From assembly GCA_041651655.1 (NCBI GenBank), contig JBAZIW010000003.1, positions 8,917-72,916 on the forward strand: a DNA stretch of 64,000 nucleotides, written 5' to 3'. The notes under the pieces were generated by a model. It worked only from the letters and a program-made list of their open reading frames with translations. It was not told the DNA's origin and did no database searches. Shown piece by piece: positions 5,612 through 28,406 of the stretch. Made by a program: the position numbers and the translations under genes. The first letter of the stretch is position 1; each line of letters starts with the position of its first letter. The DNA is from Minisyncoccota bacterium. Lineage in GTDB: Bacteria > Patescibacteriota > Minisyncoccia > Minisyncoccales > Minisyncoccaceae.

Positions 5612-6025
5612 ATGGCAGAAGAAACAGAAGTAATCGAAGTTCCTGAAAAGTTCAAAAAGTTAGTTGAAGAAGTAGAAAAAATGTCAGTTCTAGATTTAGC
5701 TGAATTAGTAAAAGTATTAGAAAAGAAGTTCGGTGTATCAGCTGCTCCTCAAATGATGGCTGCTGCTGCCGCTCCAGCTGCCGGCGCTGCCGCTGCTGAA
5801 GAGAAATCTTCTTTCAACGTAGTATTAACATCAGCCGGTGACAAGAAAATCGAAGTCATCAAGGTTGTAAGAGACTTGACCCAGAAAGGATTAAAAGAAG
5901 CCAAGGATTTAGTTGACGCTATCGCTACAGCTCCTCAAACAATCAAGGAGGATGCTAAGAAAGAAGAAGCTGAAGAAATGAAAAAGAAATTCACAGAAGC
6001 TGGTGCAACTGTAGAATTAAAATAA
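5612..6025 (+). CDS. rplL: 50S ribosomal protein L7/L12
   Basis: Ala-rich hinge [16 protein letters not shown] and C-terminal [18 protein letters not shown]...GATVELK. Confidence 0.96.
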
Positions 6026-6037
6026 GGATAACAAAAC

Positions 6038-6061
6038 GACTCCGTGAAAACGGAGTTTTTT
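6038..6061 (+). terminator. rho-independent terminator of rplL
   Basis: GACTCCGT-gaaa-ACGGAGT followed by TTTTT. Confidence 0.8.
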
Positions 6062-6066
6062 GTTTT

Positions 6067-6832
6067 AAAAAAAGAAAACCGCGGAAGCAATTTGTTTGCT
6101 TACGCGGCGGTGTTTGAAATAAGAAGTTGGTCGGAGGAGATGAGGGCTTTTGGGATTATCGAGCCTACTTGAACGAATTCTTTCGGTCTATTGATCTTTC
6201 CCTTGGGATGCCCTTACCTTGTAGCTGTTTGTAGCAACTACTTCACTGTGGTGTGGTTTGTCCTAGCTAACTTTGTAGCTTTTTAGCAATTCTCCTTTTT
6301 GTATTGCTATAGATTTTTTTGTTCGGGGGGTCACGGGGGACGAGAAAAAGCTGATCTTCCAGGGGTGTGAGCGGGTATCGATATCACTGATCAATGTGAG
6401 AGCAGAAACGCTTCTCCAAGATGCCGGCTCTTAACGCTCCGATGATGAGCTATGAACATTTAGACTCGTCGCCCAACAGGTCAGAAGAAACATGAGTGAG
6501 GATATTATCCCCATCATCCAACGGCGCTAAGAAGCGCCGAACTGTCAAAGATTTTTTATCATTGAAGTCCTCCTTACAGGGGGGTCCGGGCAGGCCTGGG
6601 TTACGGGTAGATCTCGGTACCGGCATTCATCACATAGGTGTTGGTAAGCTGCCTTATCACGATCATATTTCCCACCACCTCCAGGGGTGAAAAGTGTTCG
6701 AACGTTCTTACGTGCAATAGCTTTCTAGTGCCACCACTTCTTGGTGGCTGTTTTCAAGGATAATCAATATCCCTTAAAACAACCACCAAAACCATCTTCT
6801 TATTTAAATAAAATGAGCTATTAACTTACAAG
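6067..6832 (-). ncRNA. candidate ~760-nt structured non-coding RNA (unclassified)
   Basis: Minus-strand TTGACA (6865-6860)-N17-TATTGT (6842-6837) promoter. Minus-strand terminator hairpin 6079-6107 followed by UUUUCUUUUUUU (6078-6067). No ORF of 60 aa or more on that strand. G+C is visibly higher than in the flanks. Long helices are present, e.g. 6743-6759/6771-6787. Confidence 0.45.
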
Positions 6833-6913
6833 CCATACAATAACTTCTTTTGTTAATTTTGTCAAGAGGGGGACAATAAAACAAAAACACCCTCTCGGGT
6901 GCTTTGTTTTAAA

Positions 6914-7642
6914 TTACTGACAAAGACTGGCTGGTTGATTTCCTGTCGCAAGACAGATAACCTTCTTTAAAGAAGCTTTTTCAGATTCTTCTCCGGCAGA
7001 TTCGCCTGATCCGATTCTGAAATATTTACAACCAATTACCAAAGTGGGAACTGATCCGGTACTGTATTTATTAAAAACATCAGAATCTGTATCACTATCA
7101 ATGTTCTCGTGGTATGAAATAGTATCTCCGAATTCTTTAACTACACCTTGAAGGATCGGCTTCTCCCAGACACAGTGAGGACAGCCTGATGAACCAAAGA
7201 AGTATACAATCGGTTTTCCATTTTCAGAACAAACCTCTGTATCCTTTGCTTCAGAGAAACTTCCATCTAATTGTGTATCAGTAGTTTCTACTGTTGAACC
7301 TGTTTGTGTAGTGGATCCTGTTCCTTGATTTGGATCTTTAGTCATATCATATGGTTCACTGGCAAAAAGGTATTTTCCATCAGTACTTACATATGAACCG
7401 AATTTGTTTCCAGAAATTTCGATAGTTATTTTTCTAAGATTTCCAATCTGTTCTTTATCAACACTAACCAATGTTGCTGTTGTGCCTTCGGCTAATAAAT
7501 ATTTGTTAATGTATTCGATTCCTTTCTGAGCCGCTTTATCGGCCGAACCGAACATTGACTGAGAAAGCATTAACGCAAGAACGATAGAAATAACTGCAAG
7601 GATTATGGTGGCAATCTTCCACCTGTCTAACTTGATTTTCAT
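6914..7642 (-). CDS. membrane-anchored thioredoxin-fold (DsbA/thioredoxin-like) protein
   Basis: N-terminal TM helix (IATIILAVISIVLALML) and the CPHC active-site motif (FFGSSGCPHCVWEKP). Confidence 0.75.
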   Translation of the reverse strand: MKIKLDRWKIATIILAVISIVLALMLSQSMFGSADKAAQKGIEYINKYLLAEGTTATLVSVDKEQIGNLRKITIEISGNKFGSYVSTDGKYLFASEPYDMTKDPNQGTGSTTQTGSTVETTDTQLDGSFSEAKDTEVCSENGKPIVYFFGSSGCPHCVWEKPILQGVVKEFGDTISYHENIDSDTDSDVFNKYSTGSVPTLVIGCKYFRIGSGESAGEESEKASLKKVICLATGNQPASLCQ

Positions 7643-7736
7643 GACGTGTTTTTTATTATTATATTTTGAATTATATCAACTTAAGAATAAAAAAGCAATA
7701 ATCAAGCCCCGCGCTTGCGGGGCTGTTAATTAAATA

Positions 7737-8006
7737 TTATTCTTCTTCGTCCGCATCATCGTCGTCATCGCCGAATTCTTCATCAATATCGTCATCGTCT
7801 TCGTCGATATCATCGTCGTCGTCAATGTCGTCATCGTCTTCGTCATCATCATCAGATACTTCGTCATCAGAATCAAACTCTCCGGTAACTTCTTCATCTT
7901 CTTCTGTTTCTTCCTCTTCTGTCTCCTCTTCTTCAGGAGCTTCACAAGATTCGTCTTCTTCTAACATTGATACAACTTCTTCGTTTACTGTTTCTTCAAA
8001 AATCAT
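7737..8006 (-). CDS. hyper-acidic small protein (Asp/Glu-rich)
   Basis: 89-aa ORF, more than half D/E (…DDDDEDDDDIDDDDDIDEDDDDIDEEFGDDDDDADEEE). A hairpin AGCCCCGC-gctt-GCGGGGCT lies downstream at 7703-7724. Confidence 0.55.
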   Translation of the reverse strand: MIFEETVNEEVVSMLEEDESCEAPEEEETEEEETEEDEEVTGEFDSDDEVSDDDDEDDDDIDDDDDIDEDDDDIDEEFGDDDDDADEEE

Positions 8007-22526: not shown

Positions 22527-22540
22527 ATTTTATTATTAAC

Positions 22541-22563
22541 AAAAAATCTCTGGTTAAGAGATT
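22541..22563 (-). terminator. attenuator terminator (segments 3:4) in the cysK leader
   Basis: Minus strand: AATCTCT-taacc-AGAGATT followed by UUUU-G-UU, ending 14 nt before the cysK ATG. Confidence 0.55.
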
Positions 22564-22601
22564 AGTTTTATATTCCGTATTATTAAAAACAAACCAATCT
22601 C

Positions 22602-22655
22602 TTAGTCTAATGGGGGACAGCAACAGCAGCAGATTTGTTTGTTTACGTTTTTCAT
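22602..22655 (-). CDS. Cys-rich leader peptide MKNVNKQICCCCCPPLD (candidate attenuation leader)
   Basis: ATG AAA AAC GTA AAC AAA CAA ATC TGC TGC TGT TGC TGT CCC CCA TTA GAC TAA read on the minus strand. The ATG lies 8 nt after the -10 hexamer. Confidence 0.6.
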   Translation of the reverse strand: MKNVNKQICCCCCPPLD

Positions 22656-22663
22656 ATGTTTCT

Positions 22664-22691
22664 ATTCTAACAAAAGAGATTATATTGTCAA
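22664..22691 (-). promoter_or_regulatory. promoter of the cys leader/cysK transcript
   Basis: TTGACA 22691-22686, 16-nt spacer, TAGAAT 22669-22664. Confidence 0.65.
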
Positions 22692-22728
22692 GAATTGACA
22701 AAATTATTCGGTTTGATAATATTTAATC

Positions 22729-22954
22729 AGCCACCTCGACATATTCTGATGTGGCAAAGAAATGCTGGCAAAGAAATCGGGAACATGCACACCTCGATAT
22801 AATGCAACATCTCTCTTTGTCAAGAATAAATATGATTGACTAATGGATCAACCAAGTAATTCGGTATCTTTTCACCTCCTCAATTACCATACTTGGAAAA
22901 CCATAACAGGATCCATTAGTCATGATATCTTCAAAGAGCAAACAAGCTCTTTTT
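22729..22954 (+). ncRNA. candidate sRNA cassette A
   Basis: TTGACA 22695-22700, TAATAT 22717-22722. 12-bp helix GACTAATGGATC (22848-22859)/GATCCATTAGTC (22910-22921). Terminator AAGAGC..GCTCTT plus TTTT at 22934-22954. Confidence 0.4.
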
Positions 22955-22992
22955 CATTTGACAAAAATTAATTCAAAAGATAATATATTTAC

Positions 22993-23179
22993 AGAACGTT
23001 TCCAAAATCGTTCAAAACTAAAGACTCAAAGAGGTCTTTTTAAGTTGAAAGCGATACTATATACTTTCTAAAACTTAAGATATAGAAAGTTGCAGAAGAG
23101 TTTGGTGAATATGTCGCGACAAATTTATTTCACACAAAACTCTTCTCCCTTATTACGGGGACCTGGTGGGTCTTTTTTT
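22993..23179 (+). ncRNA. candidate sRNA cassette B
   Basis: TTGACA 22958-22963, N17, TAATAT 22981-22986. 10-bp helix AGAAGAGTTT/AAACTCTTCT. The terminator ends in a T7 run at 23173-23179. Confidence 0.4.
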
Positions 23180-23213
23180 GTTTGACAAAAAATAGAAATG
23201 GTATAAAGATATA

Positions 23214-23346
23214 CTTGTTCAGTATTACCCATACTGAACACCTTGAAAGCCAAAAAGCTTTCCAAAGGGGAGGAGGATTGATTAACCACGATCATTTTCT
23301 TCTCCCCATCTCATATAATTTAAAACGAACCCGAAAGGGTTCTTTT
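23214..23346 (+). ncRNA. candidate sRNA cassette C
   Basis: TTGACA 23182-23187 and an extended -10 TGgTATAAA (23199-23207). 11-bp helix GGGGAGGAGGA/TTCTTCTCCCC. Terminator GAACCC-GAAA-GGGTTC plus TTTT (23327-23346). Confidence 0.4.
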
Positions 23347-23383
23347 GTTTGACAAATTTTTCTATTACCCTTATTATCAAATT

Positions 23384-23499
23384 GTAGCGACGGCTCTGGT
23401 GTGTTGAATAGGAGTTGCAGTTCCTTTAAAATTAGCTGAATGACCTACCCTCCAAAGCAAAACAAAAGAGCCACAAAAATTGTGGCTCATTTCTTTTTT
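23384..23499 (+). ncRNA. candidate sRNA cassette D
   Basis: TTGACA 23349-23354, N17, TATTAT 23372-23377. Terminator GAGCCACA-aaaat-TGTGGCTC (23468-23488) plus a T-run. Confidence 0.4.
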
Positions 23500-23535
23500 A
23501 TTGACAAAATCTTAAAAAAGACTAAGATAAAAAAG

Positions 23536-23729
23536 TACAAAAAATTAACACAAATCCTCGGACATGATGAAGAGGCGTATCTTTAAAAGAACAAGTTTCT
23601 TAAGGAGGTCTTACCAAGATTTGCTGTTAAATACAATTAAAAAGGTGGAAGGTTCTTTCCCGACACTATCCATAAAAATCCTTCCACCTTTATCCAATTT
23701 CCCGTGTTTTGAGCTTAAGGCTCTTTTTT
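23536..23729 (+). ncRNA. candidate sRNA cassette E
   Basis: TTGACA 23501-23506, N16, TAAGAT 23523-23528. 10-bp helix AGGTGGAAGG/CCTTCCACCT. A weak GAGC..GCTC hairpin plus T6 is at 23711-23729. Confidence 0.35.
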
Positions 23730-23776
23730 GTTTGCAAAACCATTGACAAAATATTATAAAGGTTTACAATTAAGAT

Positions 23777-24010
23777 AGAACCTTGAATAACCTGTATGTA
23801 ATATTTTTCCTCTGTTTATTTAAACCGAGGAGTCTGAACTTTTTTCAGAATACTACATACGATGGTGTTTCAAAGCACCATAATCAAATTGATTCTATTT
23901 TAATAATTTCTATCTCTATAAAATTATTTTAATACTATCAATCAATTGGAGAGCCATTTACATCAGTGCTCTCCTTTCTCTTTTATACGGAGCTTATCGC
24001 TCTTTTTTTT
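23777..24010 (+). ncRNA. candidate sRNA cassette F
   Basis: TTGACA 23743-23748, N16, TACAAT 23765-23770. Helices GTATGTA/TACATAC and ATGGTG/CACCAT. Terminators GGAGAGC..GCTCTCC (23948-23974) and GAGC..GCTC plus T8 (23990-24010). Confidence 0.4.
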
Positions 24011-24048
24011 ATTTGCTTTTTCAAGGAAAAAATAATAGAATATGGTAT

Positions 24049-25146
24049 ATGTCAAACTTAGTTTTATATCGTAAATACAGACCACAGTCATTTAAAGAGT
24101 TCATTGGACAGAAACACGTGGTTACCACCATCACTAACGAAATAGCCTCGGGAATGATTTCCCACGCCTATATGTTTTCCGGACACCGGGGAACAGGAAA
24201 GACAACTCTGGCTAGATTATTTGCTAAGGCCATCAACTGTCAAAACTTGAAAGGATCCGAACCGTGCAACAAATGTCCTTCCTGTTTGGAAATCAACGGA
24301 GGCAAGGCAGTAGATATTATTGAAATTGATGCCGCTTCAAACAGAGGCATTGATGAAATCAGAAGCATCAGAGAGGGAATTAAATTTGCTCCCAACTTTT
24401 TAAAATACAAAGTTTTGATTTTGGATGAAGCTCACCAATTATCAAAAGATGCGGCCAATGCATTATTGAAAATATTGGAAGAACCGCCCTCATATGCAAT
24501 TTTCATTTTAGCCACCACCGAAGCTCACAAAATGATTCCGACGATTGCTTCCCGCTGTCAGAGATTTGATTTCTATAAACTCTCTTTTGATGAGGTGGTA
24601 GAAAAACTTTCTTTCATTTGCAAAAAAGAAGGAATTGAAATCGAGAAAGAAGCCTTGGGATTGATCGCTTCCGCTTCCGAAGGTTCAATGAGGGACGCCG
24701 AGGGAACACTGAATCAAGTTTTAAATTTCTTACCGGGCACTAAAATCAAAGCAGAAGACGTTCAACTGCTTTTAGGATTAGTAGATATCAATTTGGTAGT
24801 TGAATTAACCGATTATTTGATAAAAAAAGACAAAGCCGGAGCTTTGAAGTTTTTGAATGACAATATTGAGAAGGGAATAGATATTTCTGAATTTACCAGA
24901 ACTCTTATTGACTATTTACGAAAATTGCTTATCCTAAAGATTGATTCAAGTTTAATCAGTTCAGTAATGCCTGGAGAAACTAAAGAAGTAGGGGAGAAAG
25001 CTAAAAAACAAGCCGAAGGGTTATTAGAAGACAATTTAAAGAAAACCCTTAATCTACTCTTAGACGCTGACAATAAAAGCAAGTATGCTTCAATACAGCA
25101 ATTGCCTTTAGAATTGGCTTTAATTGAATCAATCGGAATTGAATAG
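24049..25146 (+). CDS. dnaX: DNA polymerase III subunit gamma/tau (N-terminal clamp-loader core)
   Basis: LYRKYRPQSFKEFIGQKHV, Walker A GHRGTGKTT, zinc module CNKCPSC, LDEAHQLS, SRCQRFDF. ATG 24049 lies 7 nt after TAGAAT (leaderless). Confidence 0.92.
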   Translation: MSNLVLYRKYRPQSFKEFIGQKHVVTTITNEIASGMISHAYMFSGHRGTGKTTLARLFAKAINCQNLKGSEPCNKCPSCLEINGGKAVDIIEIDAASNRGIDEIRSIREGIKFAPNFLKYKVLILDEAHQLSKDAANALLKILEEPPSYAIFILATTEAHKMIPTIASRCQRFDFYKLSFDEVVEKLSFICKKEGIEIEKEALGLIASASEGSMRDAEGTLNQVLNFLPGTKIKAEDVQLLLGLVDINLVVELTDYLIKKDKAGALKFLNDNIEKGIDISEFTRTLIDYLRKLLILKIDSSLISSVMPGETKEVGEKAKKQAEGLLEDNLKKTLNLLLDADNKSKYASIQQLPLELALIESIGIE

Positions 25147-27589: not shown

Positions 27590-27817
27590 ATGCCAGGTTT
27601 AGACAAGACAGGTCCTGCAGGAATGGGAGCAGGAACAGGAAGAGGAATGGGTCCATGTTGCGGAAGGACAGGTCGTGGATACGGATGGGGAATGGGAGCA
27701 AGAAGATTCTTCACTAAAAAAGAAGAAGCTGAATTGCTGAAAGAAGAGGCCGAAGCTCTTGAAGAAGAATTGAAAGCTGTAAAAGAAAGAATCAGCGAGA
27801 TAGAGAACCAGAAATAA
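27590..27817 (+). CDS. DUF5320-like small protein (Gly-rich N-terminus, coiled-coil C-terminus)
   Basis: MPGLDKTGPAGMGAGTGRGMGPCCGRTGRGYGWGMG followed by EEAELLKEEAEALEEELKAVKERISEIE. Confidence 0.7.
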   Translation: MPGLDKTGPAGMGAGTGRGMGPCCGRTGRGYGWGMGARRFFTKKEEAELLKEEAEALEEELKAVKERISEIENQK

Positions 27818-27859
27818 GAAATACCCGCTCTGCAAGGGGCGGGTTTGACTATTAATAAA

Positions 27860-28126
27860 ATGAAAGTAATAAAAATTGGAGCAATTTGGTGCCAGGGATG
27901 TAAAATAATGGGTCCGAGATGGAAAGAAATAGAAATAGAAAACCCTTGGCTTAAAACCGAGTTCTATGATTTTGATCAGAATAAAGAAATTGTCAGTAAA
28001 TACAATCCCACAGCCATGCCTTCTTTCATCTTTTTAGATAAAAATGACAATGAAATCTTGCGTTTAAGCGGAGAAGTAGATAAAATGAAAATAATAGAAG
28101 CTATTAATCAAAACAAAGACAAGTAA
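27860..28126 (+). CDS. thioredoxin-like protein
   Basis: WCQGC active-site motif (IGAIWCQGCKIMGP) and a cis-Pro context (PTAMPSFIF). The first ATG of track ORF 27845..28126 is at 27860. Confidence 0.65.
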   Translation: MKVIKIGAIWCQGCKIMGPRWKEIEIENPWLKTEFYDFDQNKEIVSKYNPTAMPSFIFLDKNDNEILRLSGEVDKMKIIEAINQNKDK

Positions 28127-28127
28127 T

Positions 28128-28406
28128 ATGGTAAGGCCAGTAAAACCAAGAAAGATATGCTTTAATCCAGGGGTGACATATTTTAAACCCCGAGCAATAC
28201 CTTTATCTTCGCTAGAAGAAGTTGATTTGGGCATGGATGAACTGGAGGTTTTGAGGCTTTGTGATTACAAGGGGCTTAATCAAAAAGAGGCCGCAATCAA
28301 GATGAAAGTATCGCAAAGTACATTGCAGAGAATTTTAGTCTCTGCCAGAAAAAAAGTTTCCGAAGCTATTGTTGAAGGTAAAGCTATAAAAATAAATAAT
28401 AAATAA
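28128..28406 (+). CDS. DUF134/UPF0251-family putative DNA-binding protein
   Basis: MVRPVKPRKICFNPGVTYFKPRAIP... followed by the sigma-70 region-4-like HTH LNQKEAAIKMKVSQSTLQRIL. Confidence 0.75.
   Translation: MVRPVKPRKICFNPGVTYFKPRAIPLSSLEEVDLGMDELEVLRLCDYKGLNQKEAAIKMKVSQSTLQRILVSARKKVSEAIVEGKAIKINNK

Follow-up and report, generated by a model that had tools for sequence, protein, structure and literature searches.

Locus and predicted transcription unit

The stretch of DNA considered here (the window) comprises 64,000 nucleotides (nt) of contig JBAZIW010000003.1 (positions 8,917 to 72,916, forward strand; assembly GCA_041651655.1) from a Minisyncoccota bacterium of the order Minisyncoccales. 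Its rplL gene (5612-6025, plus strand) and a gene encoding a thioredoxin-like protein with a membrane anchor (6914-7642, minus strand) converge on a gap of 888 bp (6026-6913), which harbors the subject of this work, a putative structured RNA gene carrying two tiny open reading frames (ORFs). The longest ORFs in the gap reach 58 amino acids (aa) on the minus and 64 aa on the plus strand, with 11-19 stops interrupting each frame. Its G+C content is 0.435, with 0.45-0.505 in 200-nt windows, against an average of 0.363 for the window. Minimum-free-energy z-scores against shuffled sequence are -4.45 (minus strand) and -5.33 (plus strand). An earlier reading of the DNA by a model that saw only its letters and ORFs (the original prediction) had noted a G+C-enriched gap devoid of minus-strand ORFs of 60 aa or more, as the figures confirm, and had proposed a large structured non-coding RNA. 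It had also expected rpoB to follow rplL, an expectation that is irrelevant here, the convergent junction of the two genes being ancestral in the lineage.

The transcription unit is delimited by the following features:

6884-6905, minus strand: intrinsic terminator of the upstream thioredoxin-like gene (terminator scan; kept in all homologous loci)
6837-6865, minus strand: sigma-70-type promoter with a -35 box TTGACA (6860-6865), a 17-nt spacer and a -10 box TATTGT (6837-6842) (sequence scan)
6067-6836, minus strand: predicted primary transcript of ~765 nt (promoter and terminator positions; alignments A1, A2 and A4)
6067-6108, minus strand: intrinsic terminator made of a hairpin (6078-6108) and the U-run UUUUCUUUUUUU (6067-6077) (helix 25, two compensatory pairs)

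The first of these terminators separates the thioredoxin-like gene from the RNA unit. A promoter of the form TTGACA-N15-19-TAnnnT lies upstream of the units in 17 of the 18 homologous loci scanned (loci are designated by L numbers), and in L022 a TTGACA box with a different -10 was spotted by eye. At the other end, the RNA terminator sits back to back with the terminator hairpin of rplL (6038-6057), and the units inspected from other species have terminator hairpins of different sequence at the same place, with pairing retained. We infer that transcription starts near 6830 and ends within the U-run at 6067-6077. The covariance model of the 5' hairpin described below scores the RNA strand above the opposite strand in every locus (62.5 versus 48.1 bits in the window), and the minus strand of the window is the predicted transcribed strand. 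The original prediction had recognized this arrangement: a promoter placed just after the thioredoxin-like terminator, now located as a hairpin at 6905-6884; a far-end hairpin with a U-run, which covaries in homologues; and a minus-strand unit of its own, convergent with rplL, which the conserved promoter and terminator support.

No structural gene lies downstream within the unit, which ends at its terminator and faces the convergent rplL, in the window as in all homologues; a leader-peptide transcription attenuator is ruled out on this ground. A consensus scan of 6026-6913 detects no plus-strand (antisense) promoter, although an atypical one could escape such a scan, and a weak plus-strand terminator-like site (6730-6748) is not conserved. 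The hairpin that terminates rplL is read as a terminator in either direction, and in three loci with a short form of the RNA (L036, L037 and L039) rplL and the RNA unit seem to share this one bidirectional terminator. As far as sequence and conservation show, the unit has a promoter and a terminator of its own outside any operon, in the manner of dual-function small RNAs.

Folded structure

The predicted fold is made of the following elements, listed from 5' to 3' of the RNA:

6790-6805, minus strand: 5' strand of the closing stem, AAAUAAGAAGAUGGUU, a purine tract just upstream of the 5' hairpin (pairs with 6117-6132)
6739-6791, minus strand: 21-bp 5' hairpin, the signature of the family (alignment A5; covariance-model score 62.5 bits)
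6730-6748, minus strand: alternative hairpin Y:X', GCCACCA-agaag-TGGTGGC, with X' = GUGGUGGC (sequence and shuffle test)
6519-6544, minus strand: GGCGC/GCGCC hairpin, directly after the second small ORF (helix 11; conserved in distant units)
6497-6513, minus strand: GGGGAU/AUCCUC hairpin (helix 12)
6334-6475, minus strand: central domain, an irregular rod of 38 bp whose loops, the apical AGCGUUUCUGCU among them, are invariant (model R2, alignment A9)
6284-6309, 6265-6280 and 6221-6241, minus strand: three local hairpins (helices 18-20)
6143-6214, minus strand: 3' domain of nested AGGGC/GCCCU and GGGA/UCCC helices with an AGUA/GAA junction (alignment A7)
6133-6142, minus strand: C-rich tail CAUCUCCUCC, anti-Shine-Dalgarno-like (possible partner of the AGGAG loop at 6291-6296)
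6117-6132, minus strand: 3' strand of the closing stem, a pyrimidine tract (consensus fold and compensatory variants)

In the 5' hairpin, across 21 units, 95% of cells are paired and 17 of the 21 pairs show compensatory changes, while sliding the partner strand by 1-3 columns lowers the paired fraction to 31-47%. A helix had been predicted at this place, but with 17 bp; the helix itself stands, and its extent has to be corrected to 21 bp. The closing stem joins the two ends of the RNA. Its tracts vary in concert in other units (AAGAAGGU/ACCUUCUU and AAAGGAGGUG/CACCUCCUUU), its distal part covaries as well (GAUGGUU/GACCAAC, GAUAA/UUAUC, GGUGU/AUACC, GGAGGUG/CACCUCC), and in 12 of the 18 units tested its pyrimidine tract stops 46-54 nt short of the unit's end.

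In the central domain, a 15-sequence alignment is 93.3% paired and 26 of the 38 pairs are compensatory, against 9.4 +/- 2.1 in shuffled and 6-11 in slid controls, counts that lean towards structure since the alignment was fitted to the model. A covariance model built from eight sequences recovers the domain in five more distant loci (L102, L140, L142, L139 and L015). The 3' domain has the best sequence conservation of the whole RNA, with 15 pairs, four of them compensatory, and is retrieved by nhmmer in the most distant long units; its AGUA/GAA junction is loop-E/sarcin-ricin-like. Between these two domains, the loop of the hairpin at 6284-6309 exposes AGGAG(A) at 6291-6296. A pseudoknot of this loop with the CUCCU of the tail (6135-6139) is suggestive only, with a single covarying position that reads A-U in the window, L003 and L004, G-C in L002, L011 and L014, and G.U in L006.

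Taken as a whole, the RNAalifold fold of eight close sequences contains 169 pairs, 96.7% of them paired, a fraction inflated by deriving the fold from the very relatives on which it was counted; 20 pairs are compensatory, compared with 6.6 +/- 1.8 in shuffled and 2-6 in slid controls. The hairpins AGCAAT/ATTGCT, AGCTA/TAGCT and GGCGC/GCGCC, picked out by eye in the original prediction, correspond to helices 18, 19 and 11 of this consensus. The large structured RNA that it proposed is supported by compensatory changes in the 5' hairpin, the closing stem, and the central and 3' domains. As predicted from these comparisons, the locus encodes an RNA of about 765 nt with a multi-domain covarying fold held by a 5'-3' clamp.

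The 5' element has a second possible fold. Its 3' strand (Y) can leave the 5' strand (X) and re-pair with X', a downstream copy of X, so that X:Y and Y:X' are mutually exclusive. Variants of Y between units (CCACC, UCAUC, CUAUC, GGCCAU, GGUCAC) are matched by changes in X'. The Y:X' duplex beats shuffled sequences (p<=0.033) in 13 of the 25 units tested, most strongly in short units (p=0), and represents the minimum-free-energy fold in two units. The competition for the CCACC segment between the helix and the 7-bp hairpin at 6730-6748 had been foreseen, as had the exclusivity of the two folds, which recurs in many homologous units. Judging from these variants, the bistable 5' element is conserved, though not universal.

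Small open reading frames

Downstream of the 5' element, the RNA carries two small ORFs (sORFs), each preceded by a Shine-Dalgarno (SD)-like motif:

6672-6682, minus strand: SD-like GGAGGUGGUGG before sORF1 (invariant block in alignments A1 and A4)
6601-6666, minus strand: sORF1, 21 codons, MIVIRQLTNTYVMNAGTEIYP, AUG AUC GUG AUA AGG ... UAA (frame conservation)
6569-6575, minus strand: SD AAGGAGG of sORF2, 6 nt before its AUG (sequence)
6545-6562, minus strand: sORF2, 5 codons, AUG AUA AAA AAU CUU UGA (MIKNL) (recurring mini-ORF)

Among close relatives, sORF1 occurs as nine distinct alleles of 54-75 nt, in all of which the stop codon is aligned. All seven gap events within it are multiples of three, compared with 11 of 74 elsewhere, and single-nucleotide codon differences comprise 84 synonymous and 118 non-synonymous ones, where about one quarter would be synonymous under neutrality. 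These in-frame indels and the synonymous excess point to the truly translated short ORF of a dual-function RNA, and sORF1 is probably translated on this indirect, evolutionary evidence. The non-coding label of the original prediction is not upheld: its 60-aa threshold made it miss the conserved 21-codon ORF, and the five-codon mini-ORF that follows has a perfect SD.

In distant units, an ORF of 17-41 codons occupies the place of sORF1, in most of them with an SD-like motif ahead, and an SD-AUG spacing of 6-13 nt is retained in the large majority of sORF-bearing units. The encoded peptides often start with M(P)MIV or MTV and are often Cys-rich, but are otherwise unrelated. Scans of nine sORF1 peptides against Pfam and NCBIfam gave no family match, and the sORF peptides show no signal peptide and no membrane-spanning segment; 17 of them have grand averages of hydropathy between -0.65 and 0.69 and a maximum 15-aa hydropathy of <=1.37. 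No maturase gene lies near the locus. In most long units, a mini-ORF of 3-5 codons of the form M-x-x-L-stop follows 25-48 nt past the sORF1 stop (variants MIKL, MKKL, MMRL, MTRL, MREL and MIRL), and the order sORF1, sORF2, GGCGC hairpin is kept in distant units. The short units of L036, L037 and L039 have the 5' hairpin and the switch, with no evident SD-led ORF. SD-led Cys mini-ORFs (MCIDCF, MCC and MCYC) do occur in other short units, those of L016, L017 and L018.

A longer ORF, reaching from the 5' purine tract across the hairpin as far as sORF1 (uninterrupted in unit L024a, with one UGA in the window), was rejected because the indels between hairpin and sORF1 are not multiples of three and the hairpin "peptides" are unrelated.

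An SD-like motif is found within 20 nt upstream of only 4-5 of the 56 likely genes of the window, a background against which the SD sites of sORF1 and sORF2 stand out. Many start codons of the window (e.g., those at 609, 3033, 4419 and 40407) lie 5-10 nt past a TATAAT-like box, suggesting that translation is for the most part leaderless or independent of SD sequences.

Distribution and evolution

Eighty species-level genomes were fetched via the thioredoxin-like protein, whose homologues are annotated Candidatus Paceibacterota and whose genome records name Minisyncoccales; 37 of these genomes have the convergent thioredoxin/rplL junction. The gap between the two genes measures 37-180 bp in 22 of the 37, and 298-1499 bp with the RNA element in 14. 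Because the gap is short in most genomes with the junction, the RNA gene is an insertion into an older junction, and the absence of rpoB after rplL is therefore unrelated to it. In the genomes compared, the RNA gene is restricted to one subclade of Minisyncoccales/Paceibacteria and always lies between the thioredoxin-like gene and the convergent rplL. The hairpin covariance model finds one copy in the 64-kb window. An exact-pattern scan of Joint Genome Institute (JGI) metagenomes with a 20-base 5' motif returned 21 stretches, only eight of which are real, on eight contigs from four metagenome datasets, all in the thioredoxin/rplL context. Two pattern scans of a viral contig collection gave 0 and 24 stretches, none of the 24 being confirmed by the hairpin model. 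Pattern scans are poorly suited to this family because it is too diverse in sequence, as seen in a k-mer survey.

The gene also varies in number and form. L016, L017, L018, L024 and L140 hold two or three paralogous units in tandem, every one of them with a promoter and a terminator of its own. These arrays (L016:3200-4170, L017:1213-2411, L018:3203-4697, L024:3221-4594 and L140:2554-4100) include short subtypes, long ones with sORFs and long ones without an sORF. The short form of L036, L037 and L039 is ~200-250 nt long. That of L039 (L039:3290-3510, BTXY01000002.1 at ~93.29-93.52 kb), apparently ORF-less, belongs to Ca. Microsyncoccus archaeolyticus PMX.50 and has an exposed anti-SD-like stretch, UUUCACCUCCUAAC. 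This organism is an enriched archaeal parasite, and metatranscriptomes of its enrichments are public (Kuroda et al., mBio 2024, PMC10936435).

Overall, the RNA region diverges about as fast as the third codon positions of the neighboring genes, and very unevenly. On contigs whose L7/L12 protein is 100% identical, the element is present between the genes with a mean column identity of only 81% and many indels, and the alignment of close relatives contains invariant blocks. Hardly any change is seen in the 5' 200 nt and the 3' domain, while sORF1 and the central domain are variable and mosaic. In distant units, the 5' and 3' parts can be aligned by nhmmer and the sORF1 segment cannot. Between L001 and L002, the DNA of the thioredoxin-like gene is 99.6% identical and the RNA region 74%, the difference being concentrated in sORF1 and the central domain; this contrast points to allelic exchange or recombination at the RNA locus.

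Comparison with known RNA families

Searched with Rfam 15 at the gathering threshold, the whole window yields only four tRNAs. At E<=10, the region 5900-7000 gives chance-level matches only (mir-5615 on the hairpin, and snoRNA-like ones), and 14 homologous loci give nothing relevant, a tRNA and an L10 leader elsewhere being the exceptions; the L10_leader match, at L022:5055-5168, scores 49.2 bits and lies upstream of rplJ, and upstream of the rplJ gene of the window no such match reaches the gathering score. OLE, GOLLD, ROOL, HEARO and raiA are without a model match in the window (gathering score), in 5900-7000 (E<=10) and in the 14 homologous loci. ARAGORN and the Rfam model find no tmRNA in the window, and this reading is ruled out, sORF1 moreover having an SD and an AUG of its own. 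Group I and II introns and RNase P RNA are likewise rejected: no catalytic core is matched in Rfam, and the unit has its own promoter and terminator and interrupts no gene. The original prediction had named all these families as candidates for comparison. A C/D-box or k-turn reading of the invariant GUGAUGA...CUGA meets only chance-level snoRNA scores in Rfam, and 6S RNA was rejected by eye for the short forms on the ground that their 21-bp hairpin forms locally instead of being a 5'-3' rod. Searches of the full texts in PubMed Central and bioRxiv return no account of an RNA of this kind from Patescibacteria or Minisyncoccales. Within these searches, the RNA is a new family of narrow distribution.

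Likenesses to known systems, drawn here from established knowledge, concern architecture. The closest are with RNAIII of Staphylococcus aureus (with hld), SR1/SR1P, SgrS/SgrT and Pel/sagA, which are likewise independently transcribed, strongly structured RNAs of several hundred nt. Shared traits include long-range 5'-3' helices, a translated ORF of ~20-40 codons in the 5' third, C-rich single-stranded motifs and the existence of relatives without the ORF. The present RNA, however, shows no sequence or model similarity to them; it is longer (0.6-0.8 kb), has a mini-ORF of 3-5 codons as its second ORF, a bistable 5' switch that covaries, paralogues in tandem arrays and a peptide that is hypervariable, and resides in an SD-poor host of the Candidate Phyla Radiation (CPR). 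Trans-regulation is known for the RNAIII type, whereas for this RNA we only infer it.

The original prediction had been reminded of the large ornate RNAs OLE, GOLLD, ROOL and HEARO, without placing the RNA in any class. The resemblance stands as regards size class and modularity, and family membership does not. With these RNAs and raiA, the present one shares modular multi-domain folds, variable insertions, a narrow range and an undefined biochemical role. In contrast, no oapA (OLE) or IscB (HEARO) gene is associated with it, and it lacks the tRNA or phage context of GOLLD and ROOL. To our knowledge, none of the five carries translated ORFs.

Messenger RNAs of the hok and aapA type are similar in their 5'-3' fold-back, alternative 5' structures, SD occlusion, patchy intergenic distribution and paralogues; they differ in encoding a hydrophobic membrane toxin, which this peptide is not, in having an antisense RNA gene, none being detectable here, and in a much smaller structured body. 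Finally, the pentapeptide mini-gene of 23S rRNA, the bar minigenes of lambda and attenuator leader peptides also place a strong-SD ORF of 3-5 codons in a folded RNA, immediately upstream of a hairpin that would be melted by a ribosome terminating there. Unlike them, this unit regulates no downstream structural gene and ends at its own terminator opposite rplL, and the M-x-x-L of sORF2 falls outside the published consensus of macrolide-resistance pentapeptides.

Interpretation

The reading we prefer, and to which we give an even chance, is that of a clade-restricted, independently transcribed, structured RNA gene of Minisyncoccales with a dual function, coding and structural. The RNA body would be the primary functional part, given that its conservation exceeds that of the peptide and that short relatives have it with no ORF. 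It may act in trans, as a riboregulator or as a protein-binding scaffold. The bistable 5' element (X:Y versus Y:X') would gate ribosome access, together with helices that pair the SD region of sORF1 with distal sORF1, and translation of the two tiny ORFs would in turn remodel the fold.

Several points weigh against this reading, besides the leanings of the structural counts given above. The trans-acting role is conjecture, with indirect hints in the better conservation of the RNA body, the C-rich motifs and the ORF-less variants. Apart from M(P)MIV and a weak xE(T/I) motif, the sORF1 peptide lacks a conserved core, and some long units (L022 and L140a) have no evident sORF. The SD arguments for sORF2 are weak because so few genes of the window have an SD-like motif, and the SD-like motifs could be structural rather than translational.

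A possible, though unlikely, alternative is a small-protein mRNA with a long structured cis-acting untranslated region, in which the fast-evolving, often Cys-rich peptide of 17-41 aa is what matters (secreted, host-directed or a modified-peptide precursor) and the structure serves stability or translational control. This would account for an sORF1 that is frame-conserved, hypervariable and Cys-rich in many species, for the mosaic alleles of strains such as L001 and L002, and for the adjoining gene of an extracytoplasmic thiol-disulfide oxidoreductase-like protein. It fits poorly with a 3' domain and a 5' hairpin far better conserved than the peptide, with short and some long units lacking an evident SD-led ORF, and with ~450 nt of covarying structure downstream of the ORFs, costly in a genome of ~0.65 Mb. 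The absence of a signal peptide, a family match and a nearby maturase gene argues in the same direction.

We consider it quite unlikely that the RNA is a purely non-coding ornate RNA, whose sORFs are untranslated, whose SD and AUG motifs are structural, and whose in-frame indels arose by chance or as a side effect of helix geometry. The 7/7 in-frame indels of sORF1 against 11/74 outside are very improbable by chance, and an aligned stop in all alleles and a kept SD-AUG spacing are hard to reconcile with it, even though the genome hardly uses SD motifs and the peptide is barely conserved across species. Also in its favor, helix 8 joins the conserved N-terminal codons of sORF1 to codons in its middle, a constraint on them that comes from RNA structure alone.

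A type I toxin-antitoxin-like system (hok/sok, aapA/isoA), with the mRNA of a toxic peptide kept inert by 5'-3' fold-back and SD occlusion, is very improbable: the long-distance pairing, the alternative 5' folds, the tandem paralogues and the patchy clade distribution of a locus between core genes would suit it, but the maximum 15-aa hydropathy is <=1.4 with no membrane-spanning segment, the consensus scan finds no antisense promoter, the transcript is 2-4 times the length of known toxin mRNAs, and ORF-less units exist. Functionless decayed DNA (a pseudogene, or a remnant of a mobile element or phage) hardly deserves consideration, since, despite an insertion confined to one subclade and an overall rate close to that of synonymous sites, covariation contradicts it: promoter, terminator and helices persist from species to species through compensatory changes, invariant blocks exist, no terminal repeats or transposase appear, pattern scans of viral contigs yield no confirmed copy, and no coding frame survives besides the tiny ORFs, with stops in every frame and 63 of the 74 indels outside sORF1 not multiples of three (no blastx-type search of the whole region was run).

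A bolder reading is a long shot. The RNA would be a translation-gated ribonucleoprotein device specific to archaea-parasitising Minisyncoccales, whose SD-led ORFs and SD/anti-SD-like helices, in a genome that has nearly given up SD initiation, would sense or titrate ribosome state through the availability of the anti-SD, and whose hypervariable peptide and variable central domain would be under diversifying selection through a part of the RNA or its peptide in host interaction or defence.

Other features of the window

Three further regions of the window are unusual in composition or coding content:

22527-24012: 1.5 kb of G+C ~0.33 with no ORF >88 aa, for which Rfam at E<=0.1 gives only chance-level matches; the gene downstream (24013-25146) is, by eye, DNA polymerase III gamma/tau (dnaX)-like
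7737-8006, minus strand: an ORF of 89 aa made almost wholly of Asp/Glu runs, overlapped in another frame by a Lys/Met/Thr-rich ORF of 71 aa (7730-7945); related loci have a homologous small gene of 75-89 aa in this position
27590-28406: a cluster of small ORFs encoding a Gly/Met-rich protein of 75 aa (MPGLDKTGPAGMGAGTGRGMGPCCG...), a thioredoxin-like protein of 93 aa with WCQGC, and a protein of 92 aa

Significance

The genomes of Patescibacteria (CPR) measure ~0.6-1 Mb and have little spare DNA, and few RNA families specific to the group have been described. An RNA gene that is conserved, spans 0.6-0.8 kb, sometimes forms arrays of up to 1.5 kb and has a strong promoter is therefore likely to be important in such compact genomes. 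The short form in Ca. Microsyncoccus archaeolyticus PMX.50, together with the public metatranscriptomes, makes the RNA directly testable. The locus offers a natural case in which a large structured RNA, an evolutionarily supported micro-ORF and a covarying bistable switch come together, of value to research into dual-function RNAs and into how SD-poor bacteria translate. Should the translation-gated device prove true, it would represent a new functional class of bacterial RNA.

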